Shown: piece after piece, positions 3,701-36,532 of the stretch
Numbering within the stretch: the stretch's first letter is position 1
Layout of the letters: each line of letters begins with the position of its first letter
Assembly (NCBI GenBank): GCA_947629275.1
Contig: CANRDG010000001.1
Coordinates: 1 to 38,730, forward strand
DNA: 38,730 nt
Direction of reading: 5' to 3'
From: an uncultured Clostridia bacterium
Lineage (GTDB): Bacteria > Bacillota > Clostridia > Oscillospirales > Ruminococcaceae
Made by a program: the position numbers and the translations under genes
Notes under the pieces: model-generated
Databases searched by the model: none
Seen by the model: the letters and a program-made list of their open reading frames with translations, nothing else
What the model was told of the DNA's origin: nothing

Positions 3701-4866
3701 CGGAATACGGTATTTTTGCCGTTTGCTGCTTCGACAGCTTTTACTGCATTTTGCTGCGCCTGCGAGGCGTTGTGCGCAGCTTGCTCTGCCGCTGCAAAAG
3801 CGCGATTTGTTGGTACATAATAGCTAGTCTGCGATCCACCGTATGAATAGATATAGCATCTGCGGCGGCTATTATAAACGCTCGACATTACTATTATCTT
3901 TCTGTCACCGCCGTATAAGTCGGCTTGCTCATACAAAATACAGTCGCCTGCTTGCAGCGCAAGGTCGCCAAACCATGTTATATTTGCGTTATAGAATGAT
4001 AATTTTTCTACCAACGCTTTTATATTCGAGAGCACTTGACTAATATCAGAACGATCTTTGCTTAAAAAAGGGTTGCCTGTTATATCAATCACATATCCGC
4101 TTTCACCGGAAAGAATATCGTCAAACTTTACGCCGGTAACTGATATAGCTTCGTCCGATACGGAACGGCTTATCGCATTATCTTCATTGATCACCAAATC
4201 TACCGAATCAGAAAAAGCTATAAACTCGAGTTCTCCGGTATCTCTTGTACAGCGGCAAAAACACCCCAACAACTGTGCTATATAAGTGATCATATCACGA
4301 CAGTTATAGGTCATACCCTCTGTTATATTAAGCGTAAAGCTTTTTTCAAGATTAGCAAGACCCGATATATTCTTATGCCTTACTTCACAATAATCACATA
4401 TATAGTCTACAAATTCTGTCAGTGTCTTTGTAGTGCCGTTAAGTGCTTTAGGCACGTCAACGTCAAACTTAATCAAATTATCGTATGCCTTGAAAGCTAT
4501 GCTGTTCTTTTTTCTGCTGACAGAATCCTTTTGGACATTAAATATACCTATAGGTATAGTAACAGTCTGTTCGCCGCTGTCGATGACATACACATACTTT
4601 TTACTAAGATTCACTGTAGCATATTTTAGCAAAAAAGGGTTGTCCAACGCTATAAAAAGTTCAAGTTCTATCTCACCAACATATGTGCCGCCGATATTAA
4701 ACTCATTCGCCATTACCGATTTTTCGGTGAAAGAAAAGGTGTTTTCAAGTATATCGTCAGAAGTAAATGGTATCTTTTCACCGTTGGCAAGCGTAAGTGT
4801 ACCATCTAAGTATTCATCAGCCGCTCCATACGGATCATCTTTATATATTTGTTCAACATTCAACAA
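754..4866 (-). CDS. Mosaic tail fibre / host-specificity protein (1370 aa) with collagen-like segments and a C-terminal S74-type intramolecular chaperone domain
   Basis: TTG start with SD AAAGAGGTG. It follows the TMP and a Dit-position gene. It carries three ANGKNT-F...D-WF...W modules and two Gly-X-Y runs, each followed by a QYYLS...W...P-W--GKY-WT module. It also has an STADTAK heptad tandem and a long I-A-K/ITAAKIAAG repeat shaft. The C-terminus (about 757..1075) reads SDSRIKHDI...NFGFVAQDV...YEQFIPIIWEKLKQL, which resembles peptidase S74 chaperone domains. Confidence 0.85.
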   Translation of the reverse strand: MLNVEQIYKDDPYGAADEYLDGTLTLANGEKIPFTSDDILENTFSFTEKSVMANEFNIGGTYVGEIELELFIALDNPFLLKYATVNLSKKYVYVIDSGEQTVTIPIGIFNVQKDSVSRKKNSIAFKAYDNLIKFDVDVPKALNGTTKTLTEFVDYICDYCEVRHKNISGLANLEKSFTLNITEGMTYNCRDMITYIAQLLGCFCRCTRDTGELEFIAFSDSVDLVINEDNAISRSVSDEAISVTGVKFDDILSGESGYVIDITGNPFLSKDRSDISQVLSNIKALVEKLSFYNANITWFGDLALQAGDCILYEQADLYGGDRKIIVMSSVYNSRRRCYIYSYGGSQTSYYVPTNRAFAAAEQAAHNASQAQQNAVKAVEAANGKNTVFRSEKAPPVEGRTDGDIWFSELEGGAIYIYSEATKSWEKQAFDSNAFSEELNAQLQKAFDDAAAALKDSEVALKSANGKNTNFYQSDAPDRSLSYKDDTWFQTDADGNIIAIYRYDGEKWQQTSYGGSTIAEGAIDGDKLAQDINERIAQAFEDAGIAKSTVDDLERRADSGEFKGDKGDKGEKGDKGDVGAAGAAGAAGVGITGVTVQYYLSVSATELSGSTWSVTVPAWENGKYMWTKTVTTYSNGKSSETSPVCITGAKGATGATGPQGATGATGAKGDKGEKGDTGAAGPQGATGATGATGPKGKGVKSIVPQYYLSSSNTTQTGGTWSDSCPAWTSGKYIWTRSYITWDDNSTTTTTPVLDNGLNTANSTASTAKSTADTAKSTADTAKSTATSAQTTATNALTAANGKNTVFYQAAAPATTGRKANDIWFDTDDGDKMYYFNGTTWSAQQFGSSAIAANAITANHIVASTITAAKLAAKTLTAASGVFADACIGTAQIANLAVTDAKIANATITNAKIANLDAGKITTGTLSADRIGANAITAAKIAAGAVGTNQLAANAVTAAKIAAGTITATQIAASTITAAKLNISSLSAISANLGTVTAGILQSTNFKTAAAVAGRPFPGGIYAGAQWQLSNGAFETASEASKFGYTSKIFKTSIGNGNISLSMLELPTATSSVGNICALTLTPLSMYWKSNNEGLFYDVANGGYDLKGVNSISAGEDSGIFFPATDNYFTIRSTADVTEIINTSTHNGLILDKDKTTNLYGGGNNSIIKIREAGISFTTMKPDTDTSTWLVNINRQNTTCIQLRNDSIYIYGYNQTSNRYLWCELNKTTYGLIGYVYNDKRIVVASSLCKTHIIGTAITSAKSITVSSDSRIKHDILPLSKKLLDLPDKLSAVSFKYNDDVENKTNFGFVAQDVIAALSELGIPWQNDYIITTTSENGEDIYTLAYEQFIPIIWEKLKQLSAEIKELKGRSS
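2507..2590 (-). repeat. About four imperfect copies of a 21-bp tandem repeat inside the tail-fibre gene
   Basis: Units are GCAGATGTAGCTGTTGATTTT / GCAGTATCAGCCGTAGATTTG / GCAGTATCGGCGGTAGACTTA / GCCGTACTTGCTGTGCTGTTC on the + strand. They encode (A/T)STAKST-ADTAKST-ADTAKST. Confidence 0.8.
2776..2928 (-). repeat. Collagen-like Gly-X-Y run 2 (17 triplets) in the tail fibre
   Basis: Encodes GAKGATGATGPQGATGATGAKGDKGEKGDTGAAGPQGATGATGATGPKGKG. The mirror-frame + strand ORFs here are Pro/Ala-rich artefacts. Confidence 0.9.
3100..3180 (-). repeat. Collagen-like Gly-X-Y run 1 (9 triplets) in the tail fibre
   Basis: Encodes GDKGDKGEKGDKGDVGAAGAAGAAGVG. Confidence 0.9.
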
Positions 4867-19463: not shown

Positions 19464-20216
19464 TCATTTCAGTATAGGCTCATGCTGACCTTTTACCCAG
19501 TCAGCGCCGCCGTATTTGTAAAATCCCCTATAAGTTTTTTCGTTTTCGATAATGCTCTTTATATTGCTTGCATAAAACTGACCGCCTTTTCGCGTGTGAA
19601 AGCCCATGTCGTTTAATTTATTCGCCGTCTGCAAAAGCCCTACACCCTGTGCATGCATTTCAAATATCTTTCTGACTATCTCTGCTTCGCTGTCTTTTAT
19701 AGTCATCACACCGTTTGTAACTTCATATCCATATGGCACTCTGCCGCCGCTGTAGCCGCCCTTGCTTGCTTTTATCTTTCTTCCGCCTGAAGTTCTTTTC
19801 TGAATGTTCACTCTCTCCTGTTCGGCGACAAAAAGTGTGAACGACTTTAGTATTCCCGAAAATGCACCGAAGTCTCCAAAGTTCTCTACAACGCTTATCA
19901 GTTGGACATTTTTCTTGCTGAGAAGCATTTCATAGTAAAAGTATAATTTGATCTCACGGGCAATTCTGTCGCTCTTCGCTACAACGACAGCTTCATACGG
20001 TGGGTTCTTGAATTCGTCGTCATACAGTATCTTGTCAAGAGCAGGTCTGTTATCGCAAACACCGCTTATACCCTCGTCAATGTACCAATCAAGAATATTC
20101 AGGTCGTTCTTTCTGCAATAGTCTTCGATCTGTTCACGCTGCGCATCAAGTCCAAATTTATCTTCACCTGTTTGTCCTGCGGTGCTTACCCGGCAGTAAG
20201 CTATTATGTTTTTCAT
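19464..20216 (-). CDS. Serine recombinase: resolvase catalytic domain plus the 'recombinase' domain, with no zinc-ribbon/coiled-coil domain (250 aa)
   Basis: Start MKNIIAYCRVSTAGQ with SD AAGGAGA. Catalytic motifs YCRVSTAGQ, DEGISG, SDRIAREI and VAEQER are present. The second domain, GGRVPYGYEV...VRKIF...GQHEPILK, ends where large serine integrases continue into the Zn-ribbon. Confidence 0.8.
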   Translation of the reverse strand: MKNIIAYCRVSTAGQTGEDKFGLDAQREQIEDYCRKNDLNILDWYIDEGISGVCDNRPALDKILYDDEFKNPPYEAVVVAKSDRIAREIKLYFYYEMLLSKKNVQLISVVENFGDFGAFSGILKSFTLFVAEQERVNIQKRTSGGRKIKASKGGYSGGRVPYGYEVTNGVMTIKDSEAEIVRKIFEMHAQGVGLLQTANKLNDMGFHTRKGGQFYASNIKSIIENEKTYRGFYKYGGADWVKGQHEPILK

Positions 20217-20241
20217 AAATGTCACTCTCCTTTACAATTAC

Positions 20242-26491: not shown

Positions 26492-27586
26492 TCAATCAAA
26501 TGGATTTTCTTGGTTTTCTTTTATCATTTTGTAAACATCGTTCCAGCAGGCTATAAGCACGCCGCTTATAAAGCGCTCGTCATATCTGCTTACGGGCATA
26601 TCCTGTGGGTAGTAGCCTTTAAGGCTGACCGCAAGTCTGATGTCCTCTTCGCTTACCCTGTACTCCTGCATAAGGTCTTTCAGCGGTTTCGGCAGTTCTT
26701 CGGGAATATTCAGCGGCGTAACGTCTTCAAAGTCTGACAGATCACCGACTACATTTACATCGGTCTGTACCGGTGCAGGCGCAGGCTGCTCTACAGCACG
26801 CTCAATAACACGTTCGGGCGCTTTCGTCTCGGTCGGTGTATCTTCAAAAAGATGTGCTATGTACTTGTATTCAAGCGGCAGCTCATCAGGCAGCCCGAAG
26901 CGGTTCTTTGCATCCCAACAAGCACGCCGTGTCGTATACATAACTCTTTTGCACTCGTTATTATTTGCCTTTAACTTTTTGCCGTCCTTGTCCAAAGCGA
27001 TCACTTCTGTCTTAAAATTCAAAAACAGAACTATATCCGCCCATTCTTTGACGATCGGTGCGATCTTGTTAGTGGTCTTGTCGCCGAGCTTCAGTTCCCA
27101 GCGGTCATATCCTGCGCCCATTTCTTCGGGTTGGTCAAATTTCTTGACTTTCGCGTGTGCTATAAGTACCACATTTATGCCGCTATCCACGACCTCTTGC
27201 AGAAGGTCAAGAAACTTGTCGAATTTTTCCTTTTCGTACTGCCAACCATTCCCGTAACCAAATTCCTCTATACCTGTTTTTTTGTACTTAGCGCACAGTT
27301 CGGCTATGCACATTCTCTCTGCCCAGTCAATTGTGTCTATGACAAGAGTTTTGCAGCGTTTCAGTTGCCTTTCCTGCTCGATATTTTCACAAAGCAAAGT
27401 CCAGCTGGTGGGTGTTGGCAGTCTGTCCACGTCAAGGGCTGATGTGCCGCCCTCAACGTCTATAAATATCGGGTCGGGAAATTGTGCCGCAAATGTTGAC
27501 TTGCCTATGCCCTCTACGCCATATATGACGACTTTCTTTGCCTTTTTCTGCTTGCCTCTTACAAGCCCTGCTGTGTTTGTTATCAT
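26492..27586 (-). CDS. AAA_24 / Sak4-like RecA-fold ATPase with a C-terminal extension
   Basis: Start re-set to MITNTAG (TGATG overlap with the upstream stop). Walker A YGVEGIGKST, Walker B TLVIDTID. Confidence 0.75.
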   Translation of the reverse strand: MITNTAGLVRGKQKKAKKVVIYGVEGIGKSTFAAQFPDPIFIDVEGGTSALDVDRLPTPTSWTLLCENIEQERQLKRCKTLVIDTIDWAERMCIAELCAKYKKTGIEEFGYGNGWQYEKEKFDKFLDLLQEVVDSGINVVLIAHAKVKKFDQPEEMGAGYDRWELKLGDKTTNKIAPIVKEWADIVLFLNFKTEVIALDKDGKKLKANNNECKRVMYTTRRACWDAKNRFGLPDELPLEYKYIAHLFEDTPTETKAPERVIERAVEQPAPAPVQTDVNVVGDLSDFEDVTPLNIPEELPKPLKDLMQEYRVSEEDIRLAVSLKGYYPQDMPVSRYDERFISGVLIACWNDVYKMIKENQENPFD

Positions 27587-28854
27587 CAGAATGTACCTTC
27601 CTTCCATGTTTTTTGAGTTTCTGTATTAGCGCCGTTGACGTATGATGTGCCGTCCTCGATAATGATACTGCACTCGTCGCCGGTCGATACCCTTGTGGCT
27701 ATAGCCTGTAAGCCCTCGCCGCTCAGCCACTCGCCGAAGCTTTGCAGCGTATCGGTGTCCAGCTGCTCAAGCTTGTCCAGCAATACAAAGCCACACTCGG
27801 GGTTAAGCTTACGCACGATAGATGTCGCCACAATAAGCTGCTCTGATCCGCTCATGCAGTCCCACTTCTGCCCCTTGTATACAAGCTCTCCCTCTTCGAC
27901 GGTCAGTCCCTCTAGAGGCATATTCGCGTTGTCGAGCAGCCTGCGCTTTGCAGCCCTTGTGCCCTCAATGTCGGCAGTAAGTTCGTCGTACTGCTTGCTG
28001 TATTTTTCGGCATCGATTTCTGCCTTTTCTCTTTCGAGGTTGGCATATATCTTTTTGTTTGTTTCCTCAATGTCTGCAAGGCTCTTTTCTATCTCGGCGG
28101 TGCTCTCATCTTTAAGAGCAGCCACCGTTTTGTTGGCGGTCACATACTCGTTTTCAAGGCGAGAGATCTCCTGCTTCAGCTTCAGCATCTCGGTCTGTGC
28201 CTGCTTTAACCGCTGTTCTGTCTCCTGTTTCTGATCCCTCAGCCGTTGGTTCTCGCCGTTCTTGGCAAGTATCTGCTGCTGTCTAAGTATGAGTTCTGAT
28301 GCCGATATAGGCTCTAGCGGCATACCTGCGTACACCGGCATTTCTTTGGCGTATTTTTTCTTTTGGTCTGCAATTCTGCCGACCACCGTGCGCTGGTCGT
28401 ATAAACTCTTTTCTTCGACTTCAAGCTGATACAACTTATCTCCAACGCCTATTATTTTCAGCAGCGTTTCGGCTTTTTCTTTGTTGGTCTGACCGAGAAA
28501 CTTCGGCAGGTTCAGCGCAAGCTTTTCCACGAAGCTGTTGAGCAGGTTCTGACCGCCCTTGTTGCCGCTCGGGTCTATGACCTTTAAGCTGCTGTTCTTG
28601 CCCGACCGCTCAACGACTATGCCGTTATCGAGGGTCAGCCGCATATACGGCTCTGCGTAAGCGCCGTCGCGCTTGGGGTTGGAAGGCTTAAAGTTATCGC
28701 CGCCCAGCGCCCAGCTTATTGCATCCAGCACCGATGACTTGCCCTGTGAGTTCTTGCCGCCTATCACTGTCAGTCCGTTCTTTGCCGGCGTGAGCTGCAC
28801 CGCCTTAATGCGCTTGACGTTCTCAATTTCAAGCGTGGTGATTTTTGTTGACAT
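27586..28854 (-). CDS. SMC/Rad50/RecF-like ATPase (AAA_23 type) with a central coiled coil
   Basis: N-terminal IENVKRIKAV...GGKNSQGKSSVLDAI (Walker A), a long heptad-rich middle section, and C-terminal LSGSEQ...FVLLDKLEQLD (signature and Walker B). Confidence 0.75.
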   Translation of the reverse strand: MSTKITTLEIENVKRIKAVQLTPAKNGLTVIGGKNSQGKSSVLDAISWALGGDNFKPSNPKRDGAYAEPYMRLTLDNGIVVERSGKNSSLKVIDPSGNKGGQNLLNSFVEKLALNLPKFLGQTNKEKAETLLKIIGVGDKLYQLEVEEKSLYDQRTVVGRIADQKKKYAKEMPVYAGMPLEPISASELILRQQQILAKNGENQRLRDQKQETEQRLKQAQTEMLKLKQEISRLENEYVTANKTVAALKDESTAEIEKSLADIEETNKKIYANLEREKAEIDAEKYSKQYDELTADIEGTRAAKRRLLDNANMPLEGLTVEEGELVYKGQKWDCMSGSEQLIVATSIVRKLNPECGFVLLDKLEQLDTDTLQSFGEWLSGEGLQAIATRVSTGDECSIIIEDGTSYVNGANTETQKTWKEGTF

Positions 28855-28894: not shown

Positions 28895-29143
28895 TTATTT
28901 GTTCTCACCACTTTCATTTATTTCACCTCCTGCCATGTCGGCAATACTGCTTATATTCAGCCGATTGTTTGTCCTGCATATCGGGTATACGCGTGAGCAC
29001 TTAGTACAATCAAGACTTACCACCCAGCCCCAGTTAGGAGAGAACTTGCCGTACTGCTCCGCCTCTTCACTCATGCCGTCAAATCCTACAGAAAGTTCAA
29101 GCTCTGCTCCACATTCAGGGCATTTTAAATGTTTTATTCTCAT
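28895..29143 (-). CDS. Hypothetical zinc-ribbon protein (82 aa)
   Basis: CPEC...CTKC Cys4 pattern. Its start overlaps the upstream micro-ORF stop (ATGA). Confidence 0.55.
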   Translation of the reverse strand: MRIKHLKCPECGAELELSVGFDGMSEEAEQYGKFSPNWGWVVSLDCTKCSRVYPICRTNNRLNISSIADMAGGEINESGENK

Positions 29144-29406: not shown

Positions 29407-29676
29407 TCAAAACGTGTTATTTCTTGTCACCTCTTTCAGCATTTCGGGGTCGTCGTAAATGTTACCGATTACTTCTAATCTAAAATTTGAATAAATAAAA
29501 TATTGGTGCTTTTTGAGTTTCTTACTCGTCCGCATGAACGCGAGTATATCAGTATTGAAGTAAATCACGCCAACATCAAACTCATTTGGAAAAACATCGT
29601 TATTAAAATGCTTGACGATATCACCTTCAAATATTTTTTTGTCATTGATATCGTTGATTCCTATATACTGCCCCAC
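29407..29676 (-). CDS. YopX-family protein, N-terminally shortened
   Basis: KIFEGDIV and the C-terminal GNIYDDPEML match the YopX signature. GTG start with no SD. The ORF begins where full-length YopX proteins are already about 40 aa in. Confidence 0.6.
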   Translation of the reverse strand: MGQYIGINDINDKKIFEGDIVKHFNNDVFPNEFDVGVIYFNTDILAFMRTSKKLKKHQYFIYSNFRLEVIGNIYDDPEMLKEVTRNNTF

Positions 29677-29862
29677 TGTTTCGGGTCAACGTCCCAGACG
29701 TTCTCGCAGTAATGCTTTTGTGGTCGGGTGGTTTGCCTTGTGCATTGCTATTGCATCAGGGTCATGGTTGATAGCTATATCAACGCTTCTGCCCGTTGCC
29801 ATAGATATGCCCGTGGAAGCTCCACCGCCGCCTGCAAAGTTATCAACTATTAGTTCTTTTAT
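29677..29862 (-). pseudogene. Remnant of a DNA (cytosine-5) methyltransferase (N-terminal ~65 codons only)
   Basis: My own translation: (ATA)KELIVDNFAGGGGASTGISMATGRSVDIAINHDPDAIAMHKANHPTTK, with motif I FAGGGG. SD AAGGGGGAG is intact, but the start position holds ATA. After an A4 run (29716..29719) the homologous reading HYCENVWDVDPKQ continues in another frame. All downstream catalytic motifs are absent. Confidence 0.75.
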
Positions 29863-29875
29863 TTTTTACTCCCCC

Positions 29876-30706
29876 TTATTCAAATAAACTTATCTGCGCC
29901 CAGTGTTCTTTTTCTTTGAGAATATTCCAATAAAAACGATTGCTACTATCTATAACACCTGAATCTTCTAAAGCAAAACGCTTGTCAAAGTCGTGTACAG
30001 AGTGTCCGTCAGGTTTGAAATGTACAGGGCTGTCGCTATCCCATTTCAAAAGCAATTGCCATAAGTCGGGGTAGTTCTTGCGCAATAACCGTAATTGCTG
30101 AATCCCCTGATTGTGGCAAAACCAGCAACCGCCCCGTGTAGCTGTGGTGTATATAGGAGATAACAGGTCGTTTTCCTCACACCATTTTCGGCAGTCGGCT
30201 TCTGTCCAGTTTGCAAGAACTAAAGGACTAATTTTACAATCGTTCAAACTATGAAAGCGATTAGGCTCATCGGCAGCTATTCCGATATAATCATAACGCT
30301 CTTTACCGTCTGTGCATTTAATACTATTTATAGCATTAAGCTTTAATTTGTTACACCAATTGCCTTTTATCAACGGAAAGCCTTTAACTTTTCCAACATA
30401 TTTGCCTTTTATGCGTTTACTGAAAAAGCATTTCTCATAAGTCATTTTGTCGCTTGTATAACCGTCAACTTTTGTAGCAACAATGTGTTCTACATTTATG
30501 CCCCAACGTTCCTTGATAATGCGATCCGCCTTAGCCTTAAACTCTTGCATAGGCGGCAGATCTGCCGATATAGTATCTGTCGCCCATACTTCCGCATGGA
30601 CTATTCTGTCAAGCGGCAGACCCAGCTTTTCTATCGCGCCTAAGCAAGCAAGGCTGTCCTTGCCGTAAGAAAGGCTGAGTATGTACTCTTTATTCTGATT
30701 TCTCAT
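29876..30706 (-). CDS. PAPS-reductase-family (PP-loop) protein
   Basis: N-terminal LSLSYGKDS is a variant of the PP-loop SGGKDS motif. C-terminal GGCWFC Cys motif. It overlaps the upstream methyltransferase gene by 17 nt. Confidence 0.7.
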   Translation of the reverse strand: MRNQNKEYILSLSYGKDSLACLGAIEKLGLPLDRIVHAEVWATDTISADLPPMQEFKAKADRIIKERWGINVEHIVATKVDGYTSDKMTYEKCFFSKRIKGKYVGKVKGFPLIKGNWCNKLKLNAINSIKCTDGKERYDYIGIAADEPNRFHSLNDCKISPLVLANWTEADCRKWCEENDLLSPIYTTATRGGCWFCHNQGIQQLRLLRKNYPDLWQLLLKWDSDSPVHFKPDGHSVHDFDKRFALEDSGVIDSSNRFYWNILKEKEHWAQISLFE

Positions 30707-31196
30707 TTTTATGATTTTTGGGTTTCATAAACACCATCCAATGCGTATTCATCTGCTTGCCTGTTCGCTGCCCAAGCAGCGGAGTATAAGGCGACAGCGG
30801 CAGTATATCTTTAAGCGGAATTTGGATTTCACTCCATTTGAAAATAAGTATTCCGTCGTCGTCTAGCACTCGAAAACATTCCATAAAGCCTTTCTGTATC
30901 ATGGTCTGCCAATCTCCCTCAAGACGACCGTATTTAAGTTTCAGCCAACTGTTTTCACCGCATTTCGTGAGGTGTGGTGGATCGAATATGACCAGTTTAA
31001 ATGACTTATCATCAAACGGCAGAGCCGTAAAATCGCATATGGTGTCGGGTGATATCTCGATGTATCTGTTTGGGTAAAACTCATGTCGAGGCACTTGCCG
31101 TATGTCGCAGAACTCGACATCAGAATTGTTTTTATCAAAATAAAACATTTTCGCACCACAGCATACGTCAAGCACACGTTTGTTAGGCTTTTTCAT
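30690..31196 (-). CDS. Small SAM-dependent methyltransferase with a DPPH motif (probable N6A/N4C DNA methyltransferase)
   Basis: Motif I VLDVCCGAKMF, then motif IV IFDPPH about 50 aa later. SD GAGAGG. The DNA rather than RNA target is inferred from context. Confidence 0.65.
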   Translation of the reverse strand: MKKPNKRVLDVCCGAKMFYFDKNNSDVEFCDIRQVPRHEFYPNRYIEISPDTICDFTALPFDDKSFKLVIFDPPHLTKCGENSWLKLKYGRLEGDWQTMIQKGFMECFRVLDDDGILIFKWSEIQIPLKDILPLSPYTPLLGQRTGKQMNTHWMVFMKPKNHKNEKSE

Positions 31197-31602
31197 TTTT
31201 ACCTCTCATTTCATCTTCAAGCATATCAAGCACTTTTTCAAGCGCCGCTTTCACGATCTCTGCTATATTCGGCGGCAAAGTGTATGATTTGCTTTTCTCT
31301 TTGCCTGAACGTGCTTTATACAGCTTTACTTCTGCATTTCTATCGAGCAGTTCCCTGATCGTATCTATGACCTCTTTGAGAGCGTATTCTTCCGCCTTTT
31401 CGATAAGCATTTTACCGTCAATATTTGATATTTTATGATACGCGCTAGAATCAAGATACCGCTTAATGTCACGCATAGTCATTTCTGACGTTTTAAATCT
31501 CTCAGGACATCTGCCTATATATGCCTCTTTGTAATCTTCTATCGCTTGGCACAGTATGCCGCCGATAAGGTTTTCCACGCCCTCGTCGCATATTTTTTTC
31601 AC
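31183..31602 (-). CDS. Hypothetical protein (139 aa)
   Basis: GTG start with SD AGGAG 6 nt upstream. No motif recognised. Confidence 0.55.
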   Translation of the reverse strand: MKKICDEGVENLIGGILCQAIEDYKEAYIGRCPERFKTSEMTMRDIKRYLDSSAYHKISNIDGKMLIEKAEEYALKEVIDTIRELLDRNAEVKLYKARSGKEKSKSYTLPPNIAEIVKAALEKVLDMLEDEMRGKNEKA

Positions 31603-32124: not shown

Positions 32125-32271
32125 TTAATCATTCCCCCTTACTTCCAGTTTACACTCGCCGTCCGTCTGCTCAGTATATTCCTTGCAGAAATTCTCTGCA
32201 TCTTCACGGCTTGCAGTAGCATAGACAGCTTCACCGAACGGGTTTTCGTAAAAATCAATTACTGTGTACAT
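32125..32271 (-). CDS. Hypothetical acidic micro-protein (48 aa)
   Basis: My own translation: MYTVIDFYENPFGEAVYATASREDAENFCKEYTEQTDGECKLEVRGND. SD GGAGGAGG 9 nt upstream. Its stop abuts the next ATG. Confidence 0.45.
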   Translation of the reverse strand: MYTVIDFYENPFGEAVYATASREDAENFCKEYTEQTDGECKLEVRGND

Positions 32272-33361: not shown

Positions 33362-33409
33362 ATATACGCACTTTGTGTATATTATTATATACGCAAAATG
33401 TGTGTATGT
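33362..33409. promoter_or_regulatory. Two related palindromic operators (O1 33362..33382, O2 33387..33409)
   Basis: O1 is ATATACGCA-CTT-TGTGTATAT and O2 is ATATACGCA-AAATG-TGTGTATGT. Half-sites are TATACGCA / TGTGTATA. A weaker third site may lie at 33431..33447 (TATTCACAAATCGCATA). Confidence 0.6.
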
Positions 33410-33412
33410 CAA
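33384..33412 (-). promoter_or_regulatory. Consensus early lytic (leftward) promoter
   Basis: On the minus strand: TTGACA (33412..33407), a 17-nt spacer, then TATAAT (33389..33384). O2 fills the spacer and O1 covers the predicted start site. Confidence 0.7.
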
Positions 33413-33487: not shown

Positions 33488-33515
33488 TTGACAAATTACT
33501 CAAAAAGCGTATAAT
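33488..33515 (+). promoter_or_regulatory. Repressor (rightward) promoter
   Basis: TTGACA (33488..33493), a 16-nt spacer, then TATAAT (33510..33515). SD GGAGG lies 7 nt before ATG 33537. Confidence 0.65.
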
Positions 33516-33536: not shown

Positions 33537-34391
33537 ATGTTAAGATTGAAAGAATTAAGACAGGAAAAGAAACAAAACATGAGACAGACGGCTATTGCAT
33601 TAGGAATTCCATATACAACTTATATATCTTATGAAAAAGGAGACAGGGAGCCTAATTCAGAAATGTTAATTGCATTAGCCGAATACTTTAATTGTTCAAT
33701 TGACTATCTTGTCGGAAGAAGTAATGAAAGAATTAGTGACGAAGTTTTAGATCAAGTAAATTTACTAGATAATGATTTATTGGTATTTCACGGAAATATT
33801 CATGATGCCAAAAAAGCTCAAAAAGAAAGATATTCTAAACTTACGTCAAGTCAACAATTTTATAACGAGCAACCATTGGACTTTTTAACAAGTGATGAGA
33901 TGTCTCAAATAAAAAAATACCGTACACTTGACGAGTACGGCAAAAAAATAATGAATAGTGTGTTGAATATTGAATATGATAGATGCACGCATATGGAAGA
34001 ACAATCAACAATTGAGCTACCTATACAATTGATCTCGGCATCTGCTGGAACGGGTCAATGGCTCGGTGATGATGAATATACAGAACGTATAAGAGTAGCT
34101 GATACAGCAGAAGCGCGAAAGGCTAACCTCGTAATTGAAGTAAATGGAAACAGTATGCTACCTAGTTATAAAGACGGTGATAAAGTACTTGTTCGTTTGC
34201 AACGAGACATAAATATAGGTGAAATAGGCATTTTCGTTGTAAATGGCAGTGCTTATATTAAAGAAAAAGGTAAAAACGAACTTGTATCTCTAAATCCCGA
34301 ATTTGACAATATCGCTATTAACGAATATGATAGGATAGATTGCGTTGGAAAAGTATTAGGTATAGCAGACGTTATAGATTATTCTATTTAG
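33537..34391 (+). CDS. CI-like repressor: XRE HTH + LexA/S24 autopeptidase domain
   Basis: N-terminal HTH QNMRQTAIALGIPYTTYISYEKG. A candidate Ala-Gly cleavage site (SASAGTG). S24 catalytic Ser in VNGNSMLP and Lys in YIKEKG. Confidence 0.85.
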   Translation: MLRLKELRQEKKQNMRQTAIALGIPYTTYISYEKGDREPNSEMLIALAEYFNCSIDYLVGRSNERISDEVLDQVNLLDNDLLVFHGNIHDAKKAQKERYSKLTSSQQFYNEQPLDFLTSDEMSQIKKYRTLDEYGKKIMNSVLNIEYDRCTHMEEQSTIELPIQLISASAGTGQWLGDDEYTERIRVADTAEARKANLVIEVNGNSMLPSYKDGDKVLVRLQRDINIGEIGIFVVNGSAYIKEKGKNELVSLNPEFDNIAINEYDRIDCVGKVLGIADVIDYSI

Positions 34392-35345: not shown

Positions 35346-35383
35346 AGCATAAAATTTTTTGAATGTCAATAGGAGGAGTTTTT

Positions 35384-36532
35384 ATGCCTATTTATAAGAT
35401 GACAGGCAAGAAAAACGGCAAGCAGCGTTACCGTGTGCGTATCAACTACACAGACAACTACGGCAAGGCGCATCAGACCGACCGCACTGTTTACGGTCTT
35501 GAAGAGGCAAAAATGCTTGAATATCAGCTTACCAACGACATCAAGCGCAAGAAAGAAACGCCTGCTGCCGGTATGACGATCAGCGATCTCTATGAAGAAT
35601 ATATCAACGCAAAGCGATATGAGGTGCGCGAGACCACTCTTGACAAGAGCGTGCGCATAATCGCGCGATACATCATACCCGAATGCGGCAGCACCAAGCT
35701 GTCGAAGTTTAACGTGGCTTCCGTCCAGAAGTGGAAGATGTACATGGAAGGGCTGAACGTCGGCATCACCACCAAGCGGAATGTCTATGGGGTGTTCCAC
35801 GCGATGATAAACTATGCCGTGAAAATGGAATATATGTCGCGAAACGTGCTGGAGCAGGCTGGTAACTTCAAAGCGCCGCTCGATACCACAGCCACCAAAG
35901 AAATGCAGTACTACACCGCCGACGAGTTCAAGCGGTTTATTGCCGCCGCAAAAAGTGAGGCTGAAGCGGCAGAAGCCAAGGGTGAGCTGTACAAATGGAA
36001 TTTTTATGTATTTTTTAACATCGCCTTTTACACAGGTATGCGCAAAGGCGAAATTAACGCCCTACAGTGGACGGACATCAAGGATGGCAGGATAAGCATT
36101 ACAAAGAGCGTGGCGCAGAAGCTTAAAGGTGCTGACCGCATCACGCCGCCGAAAAATAAAAGCAGCATACGCACTATACAGATACCGTTGCCGCTCATGG
36201 CGGTGCTGGAGCAGCACAAGGAGCGGTGCAGTGCCATTGACGGCTTTGCTGAGAGCTGGTATATCTGTGGCGGTGTGCGCTGCATAAGAGATACCAGCGT
36301 GCAGAAAACCTTGCAGAGATACGCCGAGGCGGCAGGTGTTAAAGCGATAAGGGTGCACGACTTTCGGCACAGCCATGCTTCCCTGCTTGCCAACGAGGGC
36401 ATAAACATACAGGAGATCGCACGTCGGCTCGGTCACGCGAAGATAAGCATGACGTGGGACACCTATTCGCATTTGTATCCGAGAGAGGAAGAAAGGGCGA
36501 TAAAAATTCTGAATAATATAAAAAACGTGTAA
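35384..36532 (+). CDS. int: Tyrosine integrase
   Basis: Start re-set to MPIYKMTGK with SD AGGAGGAG. Catalytic residues are present: R in YTGMRKGE, HDFRH (H-x-x-R), LGH, and Y in DTYSHL. It lies adjacent to the tRNA. Confidence 0.9.
   Translation: MPIYKMTGKKNGKQRYRVRINYTDNYGKAHQTDRTVYGLEEAKMLEYQLTNDIKRKKETPAAGMTISDLYEEYINAKRYEVRETTLDKSVRIIARYIIPECGSTKLSKFNVASVQKWKMYMEGLNVGITTKRNVYGVFHAMINYAVKMEYMSRNVLEQAGNFKAPLDTTATKEMQYYTADEFKRFIAAAKSEAEAAEAKGELYKWNFYVFFNIAFYTGMRKGEINALQWTDIKDGRISITKSVAQKLKGADRITPPKNKSSIRTIQIPLPLMAVLEQHKERCSAIDGFAESWYICGGVRCIRDTSVQKTLQRYAEAAGVKAIRVHDFRHSHASLLANEGINIQEIARRLGHAKISMTWDTYSHLYPREEERAIKILNNIKNV

Follow-up and report, generated by a model that had tools for sequence, protein, structure and literature searches.

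In a 38,730-nucleotide (nt) stretch of DNA from an uncultured Clostridia bacterium (contig CANRDG010000001.1; hereafter "the window", in which all coordinates are positions of the whole stretch), a gene for a small methyltransferase overlaps a gene for a PP-loop protein of the kind annotated as 3'-phosphoadenosine-5'-phosphosulfate (PAPS) reductase. We regard this pair as a recognizable kind of phage anti-restriction cassette and not as a new system. According to our best explanation, which we hold with a probability of roughly 45%, it is an early-operon cassette with exchangeable methyltransferases, and its PP-loop enzyme takes part in an S-adenosylmethionine (SAM)-linked counter-defence related to sulfur or phosphorothioate (PT) chemistry. 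The integrity of the genes, their family relationships, the operon context, the mosaic history of the locus, and the neighbourhood statistics, on which this explanation is built, were observed directly.

Phage "PAPS reductase" genes are among the commonest unexplained accessory genes of temperate phages, lambda ninC having long been known, and they are routinely mislabelled as auxiliary metabolic genes of sulfur metabolism. A large gut-Clostridia branch of the PP-loop family is unlike the metabolic enzyme CysH and is grouped with NinC, PptA, and SspD. Its adjacency to genes for methyltransferases and for the restriction-alleviation protein Lar, together with its fusions to SAM synthetase (MetK), directs attention to SAM-linked counter-defence or DNA modification rather than to sulfate assimilation. 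If the enzyme modifies DNA, it would represent a minimal, partner-poor route to backbone or sulfur modification, and this would bear on how phages escape from Dnd, Ssp, and type 4 bacteriophage exclusion (BREX) systems in the gut.

The Gene Pair and Its Overlap

Both genes, like the early-operon neighbours discussed below, lie on the minus strand. The open reading frame (ORF) of the methyltransferase (30690..31196) encodes 168 amino acids (aa), with VLDVCCG at aa 8-14 and FDPPH at aa 71-75, and its ATG start is preceded by GAGAGG. The PP-loop ORF (29876..30706) encodes 276 aa, with SYGKDS at aa 13-18 and GGCWFC at aa 192-197, and no Shine-Dalgarno sequence stands before its ATG. The ORF coordinates place the end of the former and the start of the latter in a 17-nt overlap (30690-30706), as a preliminary description of this DNA had reported. 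The four motifs named there are all present and are conserved hallmarks of their families; GGCWFC, however, was called C-terminal and in fact lies about two thirds of the way along the 276 aa.

The same description took the overlap as a hint of co-expression and perhaps of joint action, and on the latter point we disagree. Among consecutive minus-strand ORFs taken as genes, 11/33 junctions overlap, so that the 17-nt overlap is normal packing and says little alone. Moreover, it is a recent junction, because in a related locus (L089) a 50-aa ORF separates the two genes, and the methyltransferase family usually occurs without a PP-loop gene. We have consequently discounted the overlap as evidence of coupling. 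As a general caution, a short gene overlap should not be read as proof of a joint pathway.

Family of the PP-Loop Protein

A homology search with the PP-loop protein returned 6272 matches, and conservation in the family was scored on an alignment of 32 homologs. At least 90% of these sequences share residues S13, G15, K16, D17, S18, W117, C118, D146, and E147, and G193, C194, F196, and C197 are invariant; the family has three invariant or near-invariant cysteines, C118, C194, and C197. No conserved cysteine occurs after C197 in this alignment, in which the C-terminal 80 residues are variable. Sulfonucleotide reductases such as CysH have a catalytic C-terminal cysteine in an ECGLH-type motif, and because no conserved cysteine follows C197, this residue is without a counterpart in the PP-loop family.

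Among the profile collections, the protein matches phrog_424 "PAPS reductase" (1.4e-31). Pfam gave no match to the window protein even at E = 10, PAPS_reduct included, and 5/32 relatives touch PF01507. The PADLOC model of SspD matches the window protein at 9.7e-9, over positions 77-199 of 277 of the profile only, and is matched by 32/32 relatives (best 1.5e-19); the BrxP model is matched by 2/32 relatives and that of DndC by 1-2/32. When the family was aligned with single proteins by hhalign, lambda NinC gave a probability of 96.9% (E 1.5e-10, 178 aligned columns) and the phage protein PptA (PDB 21fy) one of 95.4%; in both cases the PP-loop, WC, DE, and CxxC motifs line up. Escherichia coli CysH gave 8.9%, in an alignment that ends before the CysH C-terminus. 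The hidden Markov model (HMM) of the family also retrieves lambda NinC (7.1e-8), and PptA (21fy_C) is the sole PDB entry found by the family profile (E 5.7e-5); a direct sequence search of the methyltransferase and the PP-loop protein against the PDB returned nothing useful. The AlphaFold2 model of the PP-loop protein is a confident one, with a predicted local distance difference test (pLDDT) score of 91.6. In Foldseek comparisons with the PDB it shares the generic PP-loop core only (TtuA, MnmA, NcsA, GMP synthase, TilS, and QueC; TM-scores 0.35-0.42), and in BFVD it retrieves only generic folds and unannotated or misannotated phage proteins.

Judged from its sequence, the PP-loop protein is an intact enzyme that falls within the NinC/PptA/SspD branch of the PAPS-reductase superfamily. 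A relationship to the PT enzymes within this superfamily had been proposed, and the SspD matches of all 32 relatives agree with it. Membership among the metabolic CysH enzymes was rejected on the basis of the hhalign probability, the lack of a Pfam match, and the missing C-terminal catalytic cysteine; in other words, the comparison with CysH, which had been suggested as a check, did not place the protein among the sulfate-assimilation enzymes. By analogy with DndC and the TtuA-type thiolases, its three cysteines most likely hold an iron-sulfur (Fe-S) centre or relay sulfur.

The Methyltransferase

The methyltransferase yielded 4151 matches in a homology search. Six residues (D10, C13, G14, P73, P74, and H75) are invariant across 24 homologs. 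Motif IV of the family has an invariant histidine at its fourth position (DPPH), which is unusual in comparison with the form (D/N/S)PP(Y/F/W). The protein matches phrog_954 "DNA methyltransferase" (1.4e-69) and the PADLOC models MTase_II (9.6e-58) and orphan MTase (1.9e-45); Pfam gave no match above the cut-off, and no target-recognition domain (TRD) was found in the 168 aa. Members of the family are present in 252 phage records from many phyla, from Streptococcus to Vibrio, Acinetobacter, and Gordonia. The AlphaFold2 model (pLDDT 79) has a minimal Rossmann methyltransferase fold, with Bud23, Trm11, m4(2)C synthase, and TrmM as the closest folds (TM ~0.5), and the DNA methyltransferases CamA and TaqI rank below these RNA methyltransferases.

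By these features the 168-aa protein is a class-I SAM methyltransferase, in line with the earlier description of a SAM methyltransferase, and by its motif IV it is an amino-methyltransferase. The PHROG and PADLOC annotations, together with the context, suggest DNA as its substrate. It resembles the orphan phage DNA methyltransferases (phrog_954; PADLOC MTase_II/orphan MTase) over its full length and is likewise small, devoid of a TRD, and located in the early region of a temperate phage; it differs from them in that its motif IV ends in His (DPPH) and not in Y, F, or W.

Since Bud23 and Trm11 are Trm112-dependent RNA methyltransferases, and an 82-aa zinc-ribbon ORF of the window (28895-29143) has a weak Pfam match to Trm112p (E 0.0067), this ORF was considered as a Trm112-like activator of the methyltransferase. 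The candidate was rejected: homologs of the ORF occur only in the two related loci L089 and L090, and none was found in 80 loci centred on the methyltransferase family.

Neighbourhoods of the Two Families

For the neighbourhood statistics, 160 loci centred on the PP-loop gene were collected, and the 159 with a clear PP-loop gene were analysed; in addition, a PP-loop gene was sought within 4 kb in 80 viral loci centred on the methyltransferase family of the window. Genes with a gap of at most 300 nt were counted as adjacent, the neighbourhood was set at 3 kb, and dereplication at 90% identity left 105 lineages. Conserved pairing of the two families was rejected in both directions. A PP-loop gene was found within 4 kb in 0/80 of the methyltransferase-centred loci, and the methyltransferase family was found in 7/160 PP-loop-centred loci, where it lies downstream of the PP-loop gene. 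Thus, the co-occurrence check that had been proposed for the two genes across phage loci does not show conservation of this specific pair.

A looser link is nevertheless real. A DNA methyltransferase of one family or another lies within 3 kb in 87/159 PP-loop loci, always on the same strand, and is directly adjacent in 52 of the 159; in many of the adjacent pairs the genes overlap by a few nt and the methyltransferase comes first, which is also the order in the window. The neighbouring methyltransferases are of the C5 (45 loci), N4/N6 (17), ParB-fused (15), Dam-like phrog_111 (14), phrog_757 (13), and DPPH (7) families. After dereplication, an adjacent methyltransferase remains in 31/105 lineages (~30%), and at least six families are represented. 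In 43/86 loci a methyltransferase gene stands immediately next to the PP-loop gene, against 19.8 expected for a random gene of that stretch; the link of PP-loop genes with methyltransferases is in this sense a loose adjacency above expectation.

It is noteworthy that in 19 of the 159 loci (L052, L062, L080, L081, L083, L202-L204, L227, L230, L233-L238, L244, L246, and L252) the PP-loop protein is fused in frame to MetK, giving proteins of ~624 aa. The MetK part is complete, with the Pfam N, M, and C domains (P0123 is an example), and because one case occurs in an isolate genome (Pumilibacter intestinalis), the fusion is not an assembly artefact. Four more loci (L060, L206, L209, and L241) have a separate, adjacent MetK gene. 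Where PP-loop and MetK occur together, fused or adjacent, a C5 methyltransferase is usually found immediately upstream.

Lar (PF14354) is also a frequent neighbour. It is a small Cys-rich protein encoded just downstream of the PP-loop gene (e.g. L005:5805-6113 and L020:5762-6040), and was found near this gene in 52/80 viral PP-loop loci by ORF clustering and in 33/159 loci, or 12/105 dereplicated lineages, by a stricter family HMM. A second Cys-rich protein, with a coiled coil (phrog_37865), occurs in 62 of these 80 viral loci. Neither of the two is present in the window. The PP-loop genes of the relatives also adjoin RusA, DnaB, and replisome-organiser genes. None of the recurrent neighbours in the 80 viral PP-loop loci is a DndD/SspC/BrxC ATPase or DndE/SspB, as judged without a dedicated HMM scan for DndD, SspC, and SspB, and the genes that recur beside the PP-loop gene include no others of sulfate assimilation.

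One further link between the two activities comes from phrog_33262. Along its 495 positions, the PP-loop protein matches 100-218 (1.3e-5) and a small Dam methyltransferase matches 304-434, and these split matches imply that PP-loop-Dam fusion proteins exist. In 253 loci, no single ORF was hit by the PP-loop HMM together with a methyltransferase HMM. Dam-type methyltransferases (phrog_111) adjoin the PP-loop gene as separate genes in 14 other loci; the methyltransferase of the window belongs to phrog_954.

Mosaic History of the Locus

The minus-strand region just downstream of the PP-loop gene holds two gene fragments. One (29676..29862) is the remnant of a C5 cytosine methyltransferase, of which ~60 N-terminal codons with motif I FAGGGG are left; positions 29862-29676 encode KELIVDNFAGGGGAS...HPTTK, with a frameshift near 29717 and homology ending at 29676. 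Its counterpart in the closest relative, L085, is the N-terminal part of an intact 460-aa C5 methyltransferase (PF00145). The other is an 89-aa ORF (29407..29676) that corresponds to the C-terminal part of a YopX-family protein (Pfam YopX 1.3e-15, profile positions 51-128/128). At 29407-29862, the N-terminal remnant of the former and the C-terminal remnant of the latter are thus joined head to tail, and the junction is a scar left in the early operon by deletion or recombination.

Two kinds of relatives illustrate how the locus has been assembled. In L085, the PP-loop protein is 87% identical to that of the window, no DPPH methyltransferase lies upstream of its gene, and the intact C5 methyltransferase lies downstream. 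Window positions 30695-29676 are 85.8% identical to L085, the homology breaks 125 nt into the C5 gene, and 1.85 kb of L085 are replaced in the window by a 255-nt YopX C-terminal fragment. In L089 and L090, the PP-loop protein is 77% and the methyltransferase 84% identical to those of the window, and the same DPPH methyltransferase lies upstream of the PP-loop gene with a 50-aa ORF between them. In L089, the two genes are 172 nt apart; a full-length YopX gene (182 aa in L089) follows the PP-loop gene in both loci. These comparisons show the window to be a mosaic, in which the overlap is recent and a C5 methyltransferase has been lost. The preliminary description had noted a dead C5-methyltransferase beside the pair and turnover of modification genes at this locus; the frameshifted, truncated remnant and the comparison with the two relatives agree with both statements.

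The C5 methyltransferase that follows the PP-loop gene has an unusual beginning. No ATG, GTG, or TTG precedes its motif I FAGGGG (L085:4835-4897; window 29860-29862), and its frame opens directly after the PP-loop stop; in L085 the two genes share one frame. Downstream of a GGGGGAG Shine-Dalgarno sequence, at a distance of 6 nt, lies an ATA codon that would yield a typical N-terminus, MKELIVDNFAGGGG. Either this ATA would serve as the start codon, or the protein would be made by read-through or coupling from the PP-loop gene.

Known Relatives and Precedents

Lambda NinC, annotated as a PAPS reductase of the nin region, is homologous to the PP-loop protein of the window over ~180 residues, with only ~24% identity. 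The motifs can nevertheless be aligned: SGGRTS with SYGKDS, the xFC with the WC cysteine, IGIRADEP with IGIAADEP, and GNCIFC with GGCWFC. Both genes are non-structural, early or delayed-early, and near the replication/recombination genes of a temperate phage. The differences are that ninC has no adjacent methyltransferase, and that the window gene is upstream, not downstream, of the replication module.

PptA is a protein of Vibrio phage vB_VhaP_VH-5 (L091:3791-4543; structure PDB 21fy, chain C); many marine phages encode relatives that bear the annotation PAPS reductase. Like the PP-loop protein of the window, it is phage-encoded, of ~250 aa, and has the C...CxxC pattern. Its PP-loop, in contrast, is degenerate (SCGAPS vs SYGKDS), and its gene, in a T7-like lytic phage, follows that for the RNA polymerase and has no methyltransferase gene close by. 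Some members of the phage family, like PptA, may have lost ATP-pyrophosphatase chemistry. Our literature search found no paper describing the function of PptA.

A functional precedent is provided by Vibrio phage 44E38.1, whose p0018 joins an N-terminal PAPS-reductase domain to a C-terminal Dam domain (bioRxiv 10.1101/2021.05.05.442762, Piel et al.). When p0018 and p0019 were moved into a sister phage, the latter could infect a Dnd-carrying host (bioRxiv 10.1101/2021.05.05.442762); a survey of 2026 repeats this result and notes anti-defence hot spots where PAPS reductases are found clustered (PMC13551039). Going by its description, p0018 shares with the window pair the combination of a PAPS-reductase-type domain and a small orphan DNA methyltransferase in an early or variable phage region, and its setting is the exchange of anti-restriction genes between related phages. 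It is, however, a single polypeptide with the architecture of phrog_33262, whereas the window has two ORFs in different frames and in the opposite order, with the methyltransferase upstream; its methyltransferase is a Dam and that of the window is of phrog_954 (DPPH), not of the phrog_111 Dam family; and the phenotype was scored for p0018 and p0019 jointly, not for the family of the window. In the phages of the Le Roux laboratory that we examined, PAPS-reductase genes stand alone. With the anti-Dnd effect of p0018/p0019 and the solved structure of PptA, the earlier statement that the phage-borne versions have no demonstrated function is outdated.

The bacterial PT enzymes SspD, DndC, and BrxP have the same superfamily domain as the PP-loop protein. 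DndC has been described as a PP-loop protein whose 4Fe-4S centre is held by three cysteines (PMC10853773), and the PP-loop family likewise has three conserved cysteines. DndC has also been claimed to work by a SAM-dependent radical mechanism (PMC10853773, PMC12707154), and because of this claim the MetK fusions are suggestive. In type 4 BREX, BrxP and BrxC together make PT, and all PT systems need a PAPS-reductase-domain protein and an NTPase (PMC12914056; PMC12707154). The window gene differs from these systems in having no neighbouring partner ATPase, DndE/SspB, or cysteine desulfurase; its family is phage-borne, and is solitary or found beside methyltransferases. BrxP also has DUF4007 and ferredoxin-like extensions, which the window protein does not have. 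PAPS-reductase homologs have been noted on many mobile elements (PMC11437467).

Proposed Role and Alternative Explanations

From these relationships we infer a role in counter-defence, as follows. The carrier would be a temperate siphovirus-like prophage of gut Clostridia. Its 168-aa orphan methyltransferase most likely methylates phage DNA at N6-adenine or N4-cytosine, and the DNA would thereby be masked from host restriction. With its PP-loop, the second enzyme would use ATP to adenylate a substrate or activate it in another way; it probably uses or depends on SAM and would carry out sulfur- or PT-related chemistry on nucleic acid. As a result, either phage DNA would be marked, or the PT-based defences of the host (Dnd, Ssp, and type 4 BREX) would be subverted. 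The two genes would be co-transcribed and co-selected as counter-defence cargo, and the enzymes most likely act independently and not as an obligate two-step pathway, because the methyltransferase slot is filled by different families in different phages and because the C5 methyltransferase is lost here while the DPPH methyltransferase is present. That C5, N6-adenine, and N4-cytosine methyltransferases can replace one another speaks against a compound modification derived from one methylated base, and with it against the dedicated two-enzyme modification beyond methylation that the preliminary description had envisaged as possible.

Several points weigh against a PT-related counter-defence cassette. 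Our literature search found no biochemical activity for any NinC-family protein. In every established PT system, an ATPase (DndD, SspC, or BrxC) and a DNA-recognition/nicking partner are required as well (PMC12914056, PMC12707154), and no PT ATPase or DNA-recognition partner recurs beside the PP-loop gene. PT systems occur in only a few percent of gut genomes (PMC12914056), whereas the PP-loop family is very common. Neither a methyltransferase, MetK, nor Lar is found near the PP-loop gene in 47/105 lineages, the neighbourhood statistics rest on naive ORF calls and on related, non-independent loci, and the adjacency could reflect a shared insertion hot spot. Finally, the nearest solved folds of the methyltransferase are RNA methyltransferases, and its DNA substrate is read from annotation.

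It may be asked whether the two enzymes act on the same DNA sites, either in a compound modification or with the methyltransferase as the DNA-recognition module of a lone SspD-like enzyme. The enriched adjacency to methyltransferases, with its often overlapping junctions, would fit such an arrangement, as would the cassettes of a C5 methyltransferase followed by PP-loop::MetK, the fusion proteins implied by phrog_33262, and the PP-loop-Dam architecture of Vibrio phage 44E38.1 p0018 with its tie to anti-Dnd activity. We find it doubtful, since C5, Dam-like, N4/N6, ParB-fused, phrog_757, and DPPH neighbours leave no single methylated base as a common intermediate, the two families of the window hardly meet (0/80 and 7/160 loci), and an adjacent methyltransferase is missing from ~70% of PP-loop lineages. 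The family has many solitary members, lambda NinC and PptA among them, and the overlap in the window is a recent junction. More generally, a joint pathway with the methyltransferase as the DNA-targeting partner is favoured by the fusion precedents and disfavoured by methyltransferase interchangeability and by the solitary members, and is the less likely course. One may go a step further and speculate that NinC-family proteins are SAM-dependent Fe-S enzymes that give DNA a PT, another sulfur, or a non-methyl mark without DndD or SspC, with a methyltransferase of any family as a DNA-binding or base-flipping partner and a fused MetK as the supplier of the cofactor. The window pair would be the minimal version of such a system; we think this unlikely.

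Alternatively, the PP-loop protein could counter defence without modifying DNA, as a decoy or hijacker of Dnd/Ssp complexes or as a consumer of a defence nucleotide or cofactor. No mechanism has been established for the anti-Dnd effect seen with Vibrio phages, the degenerate PP-loop of PptA suggests that ATP chemistry may be dispensable in some members, and no ATPase or DNA-recognition partners are encoded nearby. In the subfamily of the window, on the other hand, the PP-loop, the D-E pair, and the three cysteines are invariant or conserved in at least 90% of sequences, which speaks for catalysis and makes this role quite unlikely. The readings in which the PP-loop protein has nothing to do with DNA are the least supported. 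It seems improbable that it thiolates or otherwise modifies RNA, for instance tRNA in the manner of TtuA, TtcA, or NcsA, independently of the methyltransferase and for translation tuning or the protection of tRNA from host anticodon nucleases. Its best structural matches are indeed the [4Fe-4S] tRNA thiolases TtuA and NcsA, plus MnmA, and it combines a PP-loop with three cysteines; but at TM-scores of 0.35-0.42 the core fold alone is in common, Pfam scans detected no RNA-binding accessory domain, the sequence profiles favour SspD, NinC, and PptA, and the gene neighbours are DNA methyltransferases and Lar. That it is an auxiliary metabolic gene, a reductase of PAPS or adenosine 5'-phosphosulfate (APS) that boosts the supply of cysteine, methionine, and SAM for phage methylation, appears the most remote of all. 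A report on Bifidobacterium prophages proposes such a role (bioRxiv 10.64898/2026.02.18.706556), the PHROG category of phrog_424 is "moron, auxiliary metabolic gene", and a fusion to SAM synthetase would fit a supply line from sulfur to SAM. Against it stand the 8.9% CysH alignment that falls short of the CysH C-terminus, the missing counterpart of the ECGLH-type cysteine of CysH, the absence of a PAPS_reduct match at E = 10, the DNA-modification enzyme SspD as the consistent best match, and recurrent neighbours among which no other sulfate-assimilation genes were seen.

Phage Context of the Window

The anti-restriction cassette favoured here fits the surroundings of the pair. The G+C content of the window is 42.6%, its gene content is that of a temperate phage or prophage, and related prophages occur in gut Clostridia including Oscillospiraceae, Christensenellaceae, and Ruminococcus. 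Two divergent promoters, each matching the sigma-70-like consensus in 12/12 positions (TTGACA-17-TATAAT at 33384..33412 on the minus strand, and one at 33488-33515 on the plus strand), part a plus-strand CI-like repressor (33537-34391) and tyrosine integrase (35363-36532) from the minus-strand early operon. From its sequence, the promoter at 33384..33412 is the likely start of the operon that holds the pair, and no terminator-like site was found on the minus strand between 28800 and 33600. The placement of the pair in the early region, which had been stated before, is therefore supported by promoter, repressor, and integrase.

The operon runs from helix-turn-helix regulators and small ORFs to a gene for a 139-aa protein, the methyltransferase gene, and the PP-loop gene. 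The 139-aa protein (31183..31602, minus strand; phrog_7024) has no Pfam match, and the 3' end of its gene overlaps the start of the methyltransferase gene by 14 nt. After the PP-loop gene come the C5-methyltransferase remnant, the YopX fragment, and the zinc-ribbon ORF; further on lie an SMC-like ATPase (phrog_1499), a Sak4-like annealing protein, a helicase, a primase, and RusA, and then the terminase and structural genes.

The SMC/AAA_23-type ATPase (27586-28854, minus strand; 422 aa) is encoded 1 kb downstream of the PP-loop gene, and its ORF overlaps that of the Sak4-like annealing protein by 22 nt. Its resemblance to the DndD class of ATPases is at the superfamily level only. It was considered as a DndD analogue and rejected: it is a member of the phrog_1499/Sak4/helicase/primase module, and it is without a homolog in 83 related PP-loop loci.

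Two minor observations may be added. Directly upstream of the large terminase gene, with a 4-nt overlap, is a 253-aa serine-recombinase/invertase-like ORF (19464-20225; phrog_95 and phrog_125), which may act as an invertase, as a second recombinase besides the tyrosine integrase, or in place of a small terminase. There is also a family of ~50-aa ORFs (MY.V.D.YENPFG.AVYAT...), of which the window has one copy upstream (32125-32271); in L089, a member of the same family (3850-4002) lies exactly between the methyltransferase and PP-loop genes.

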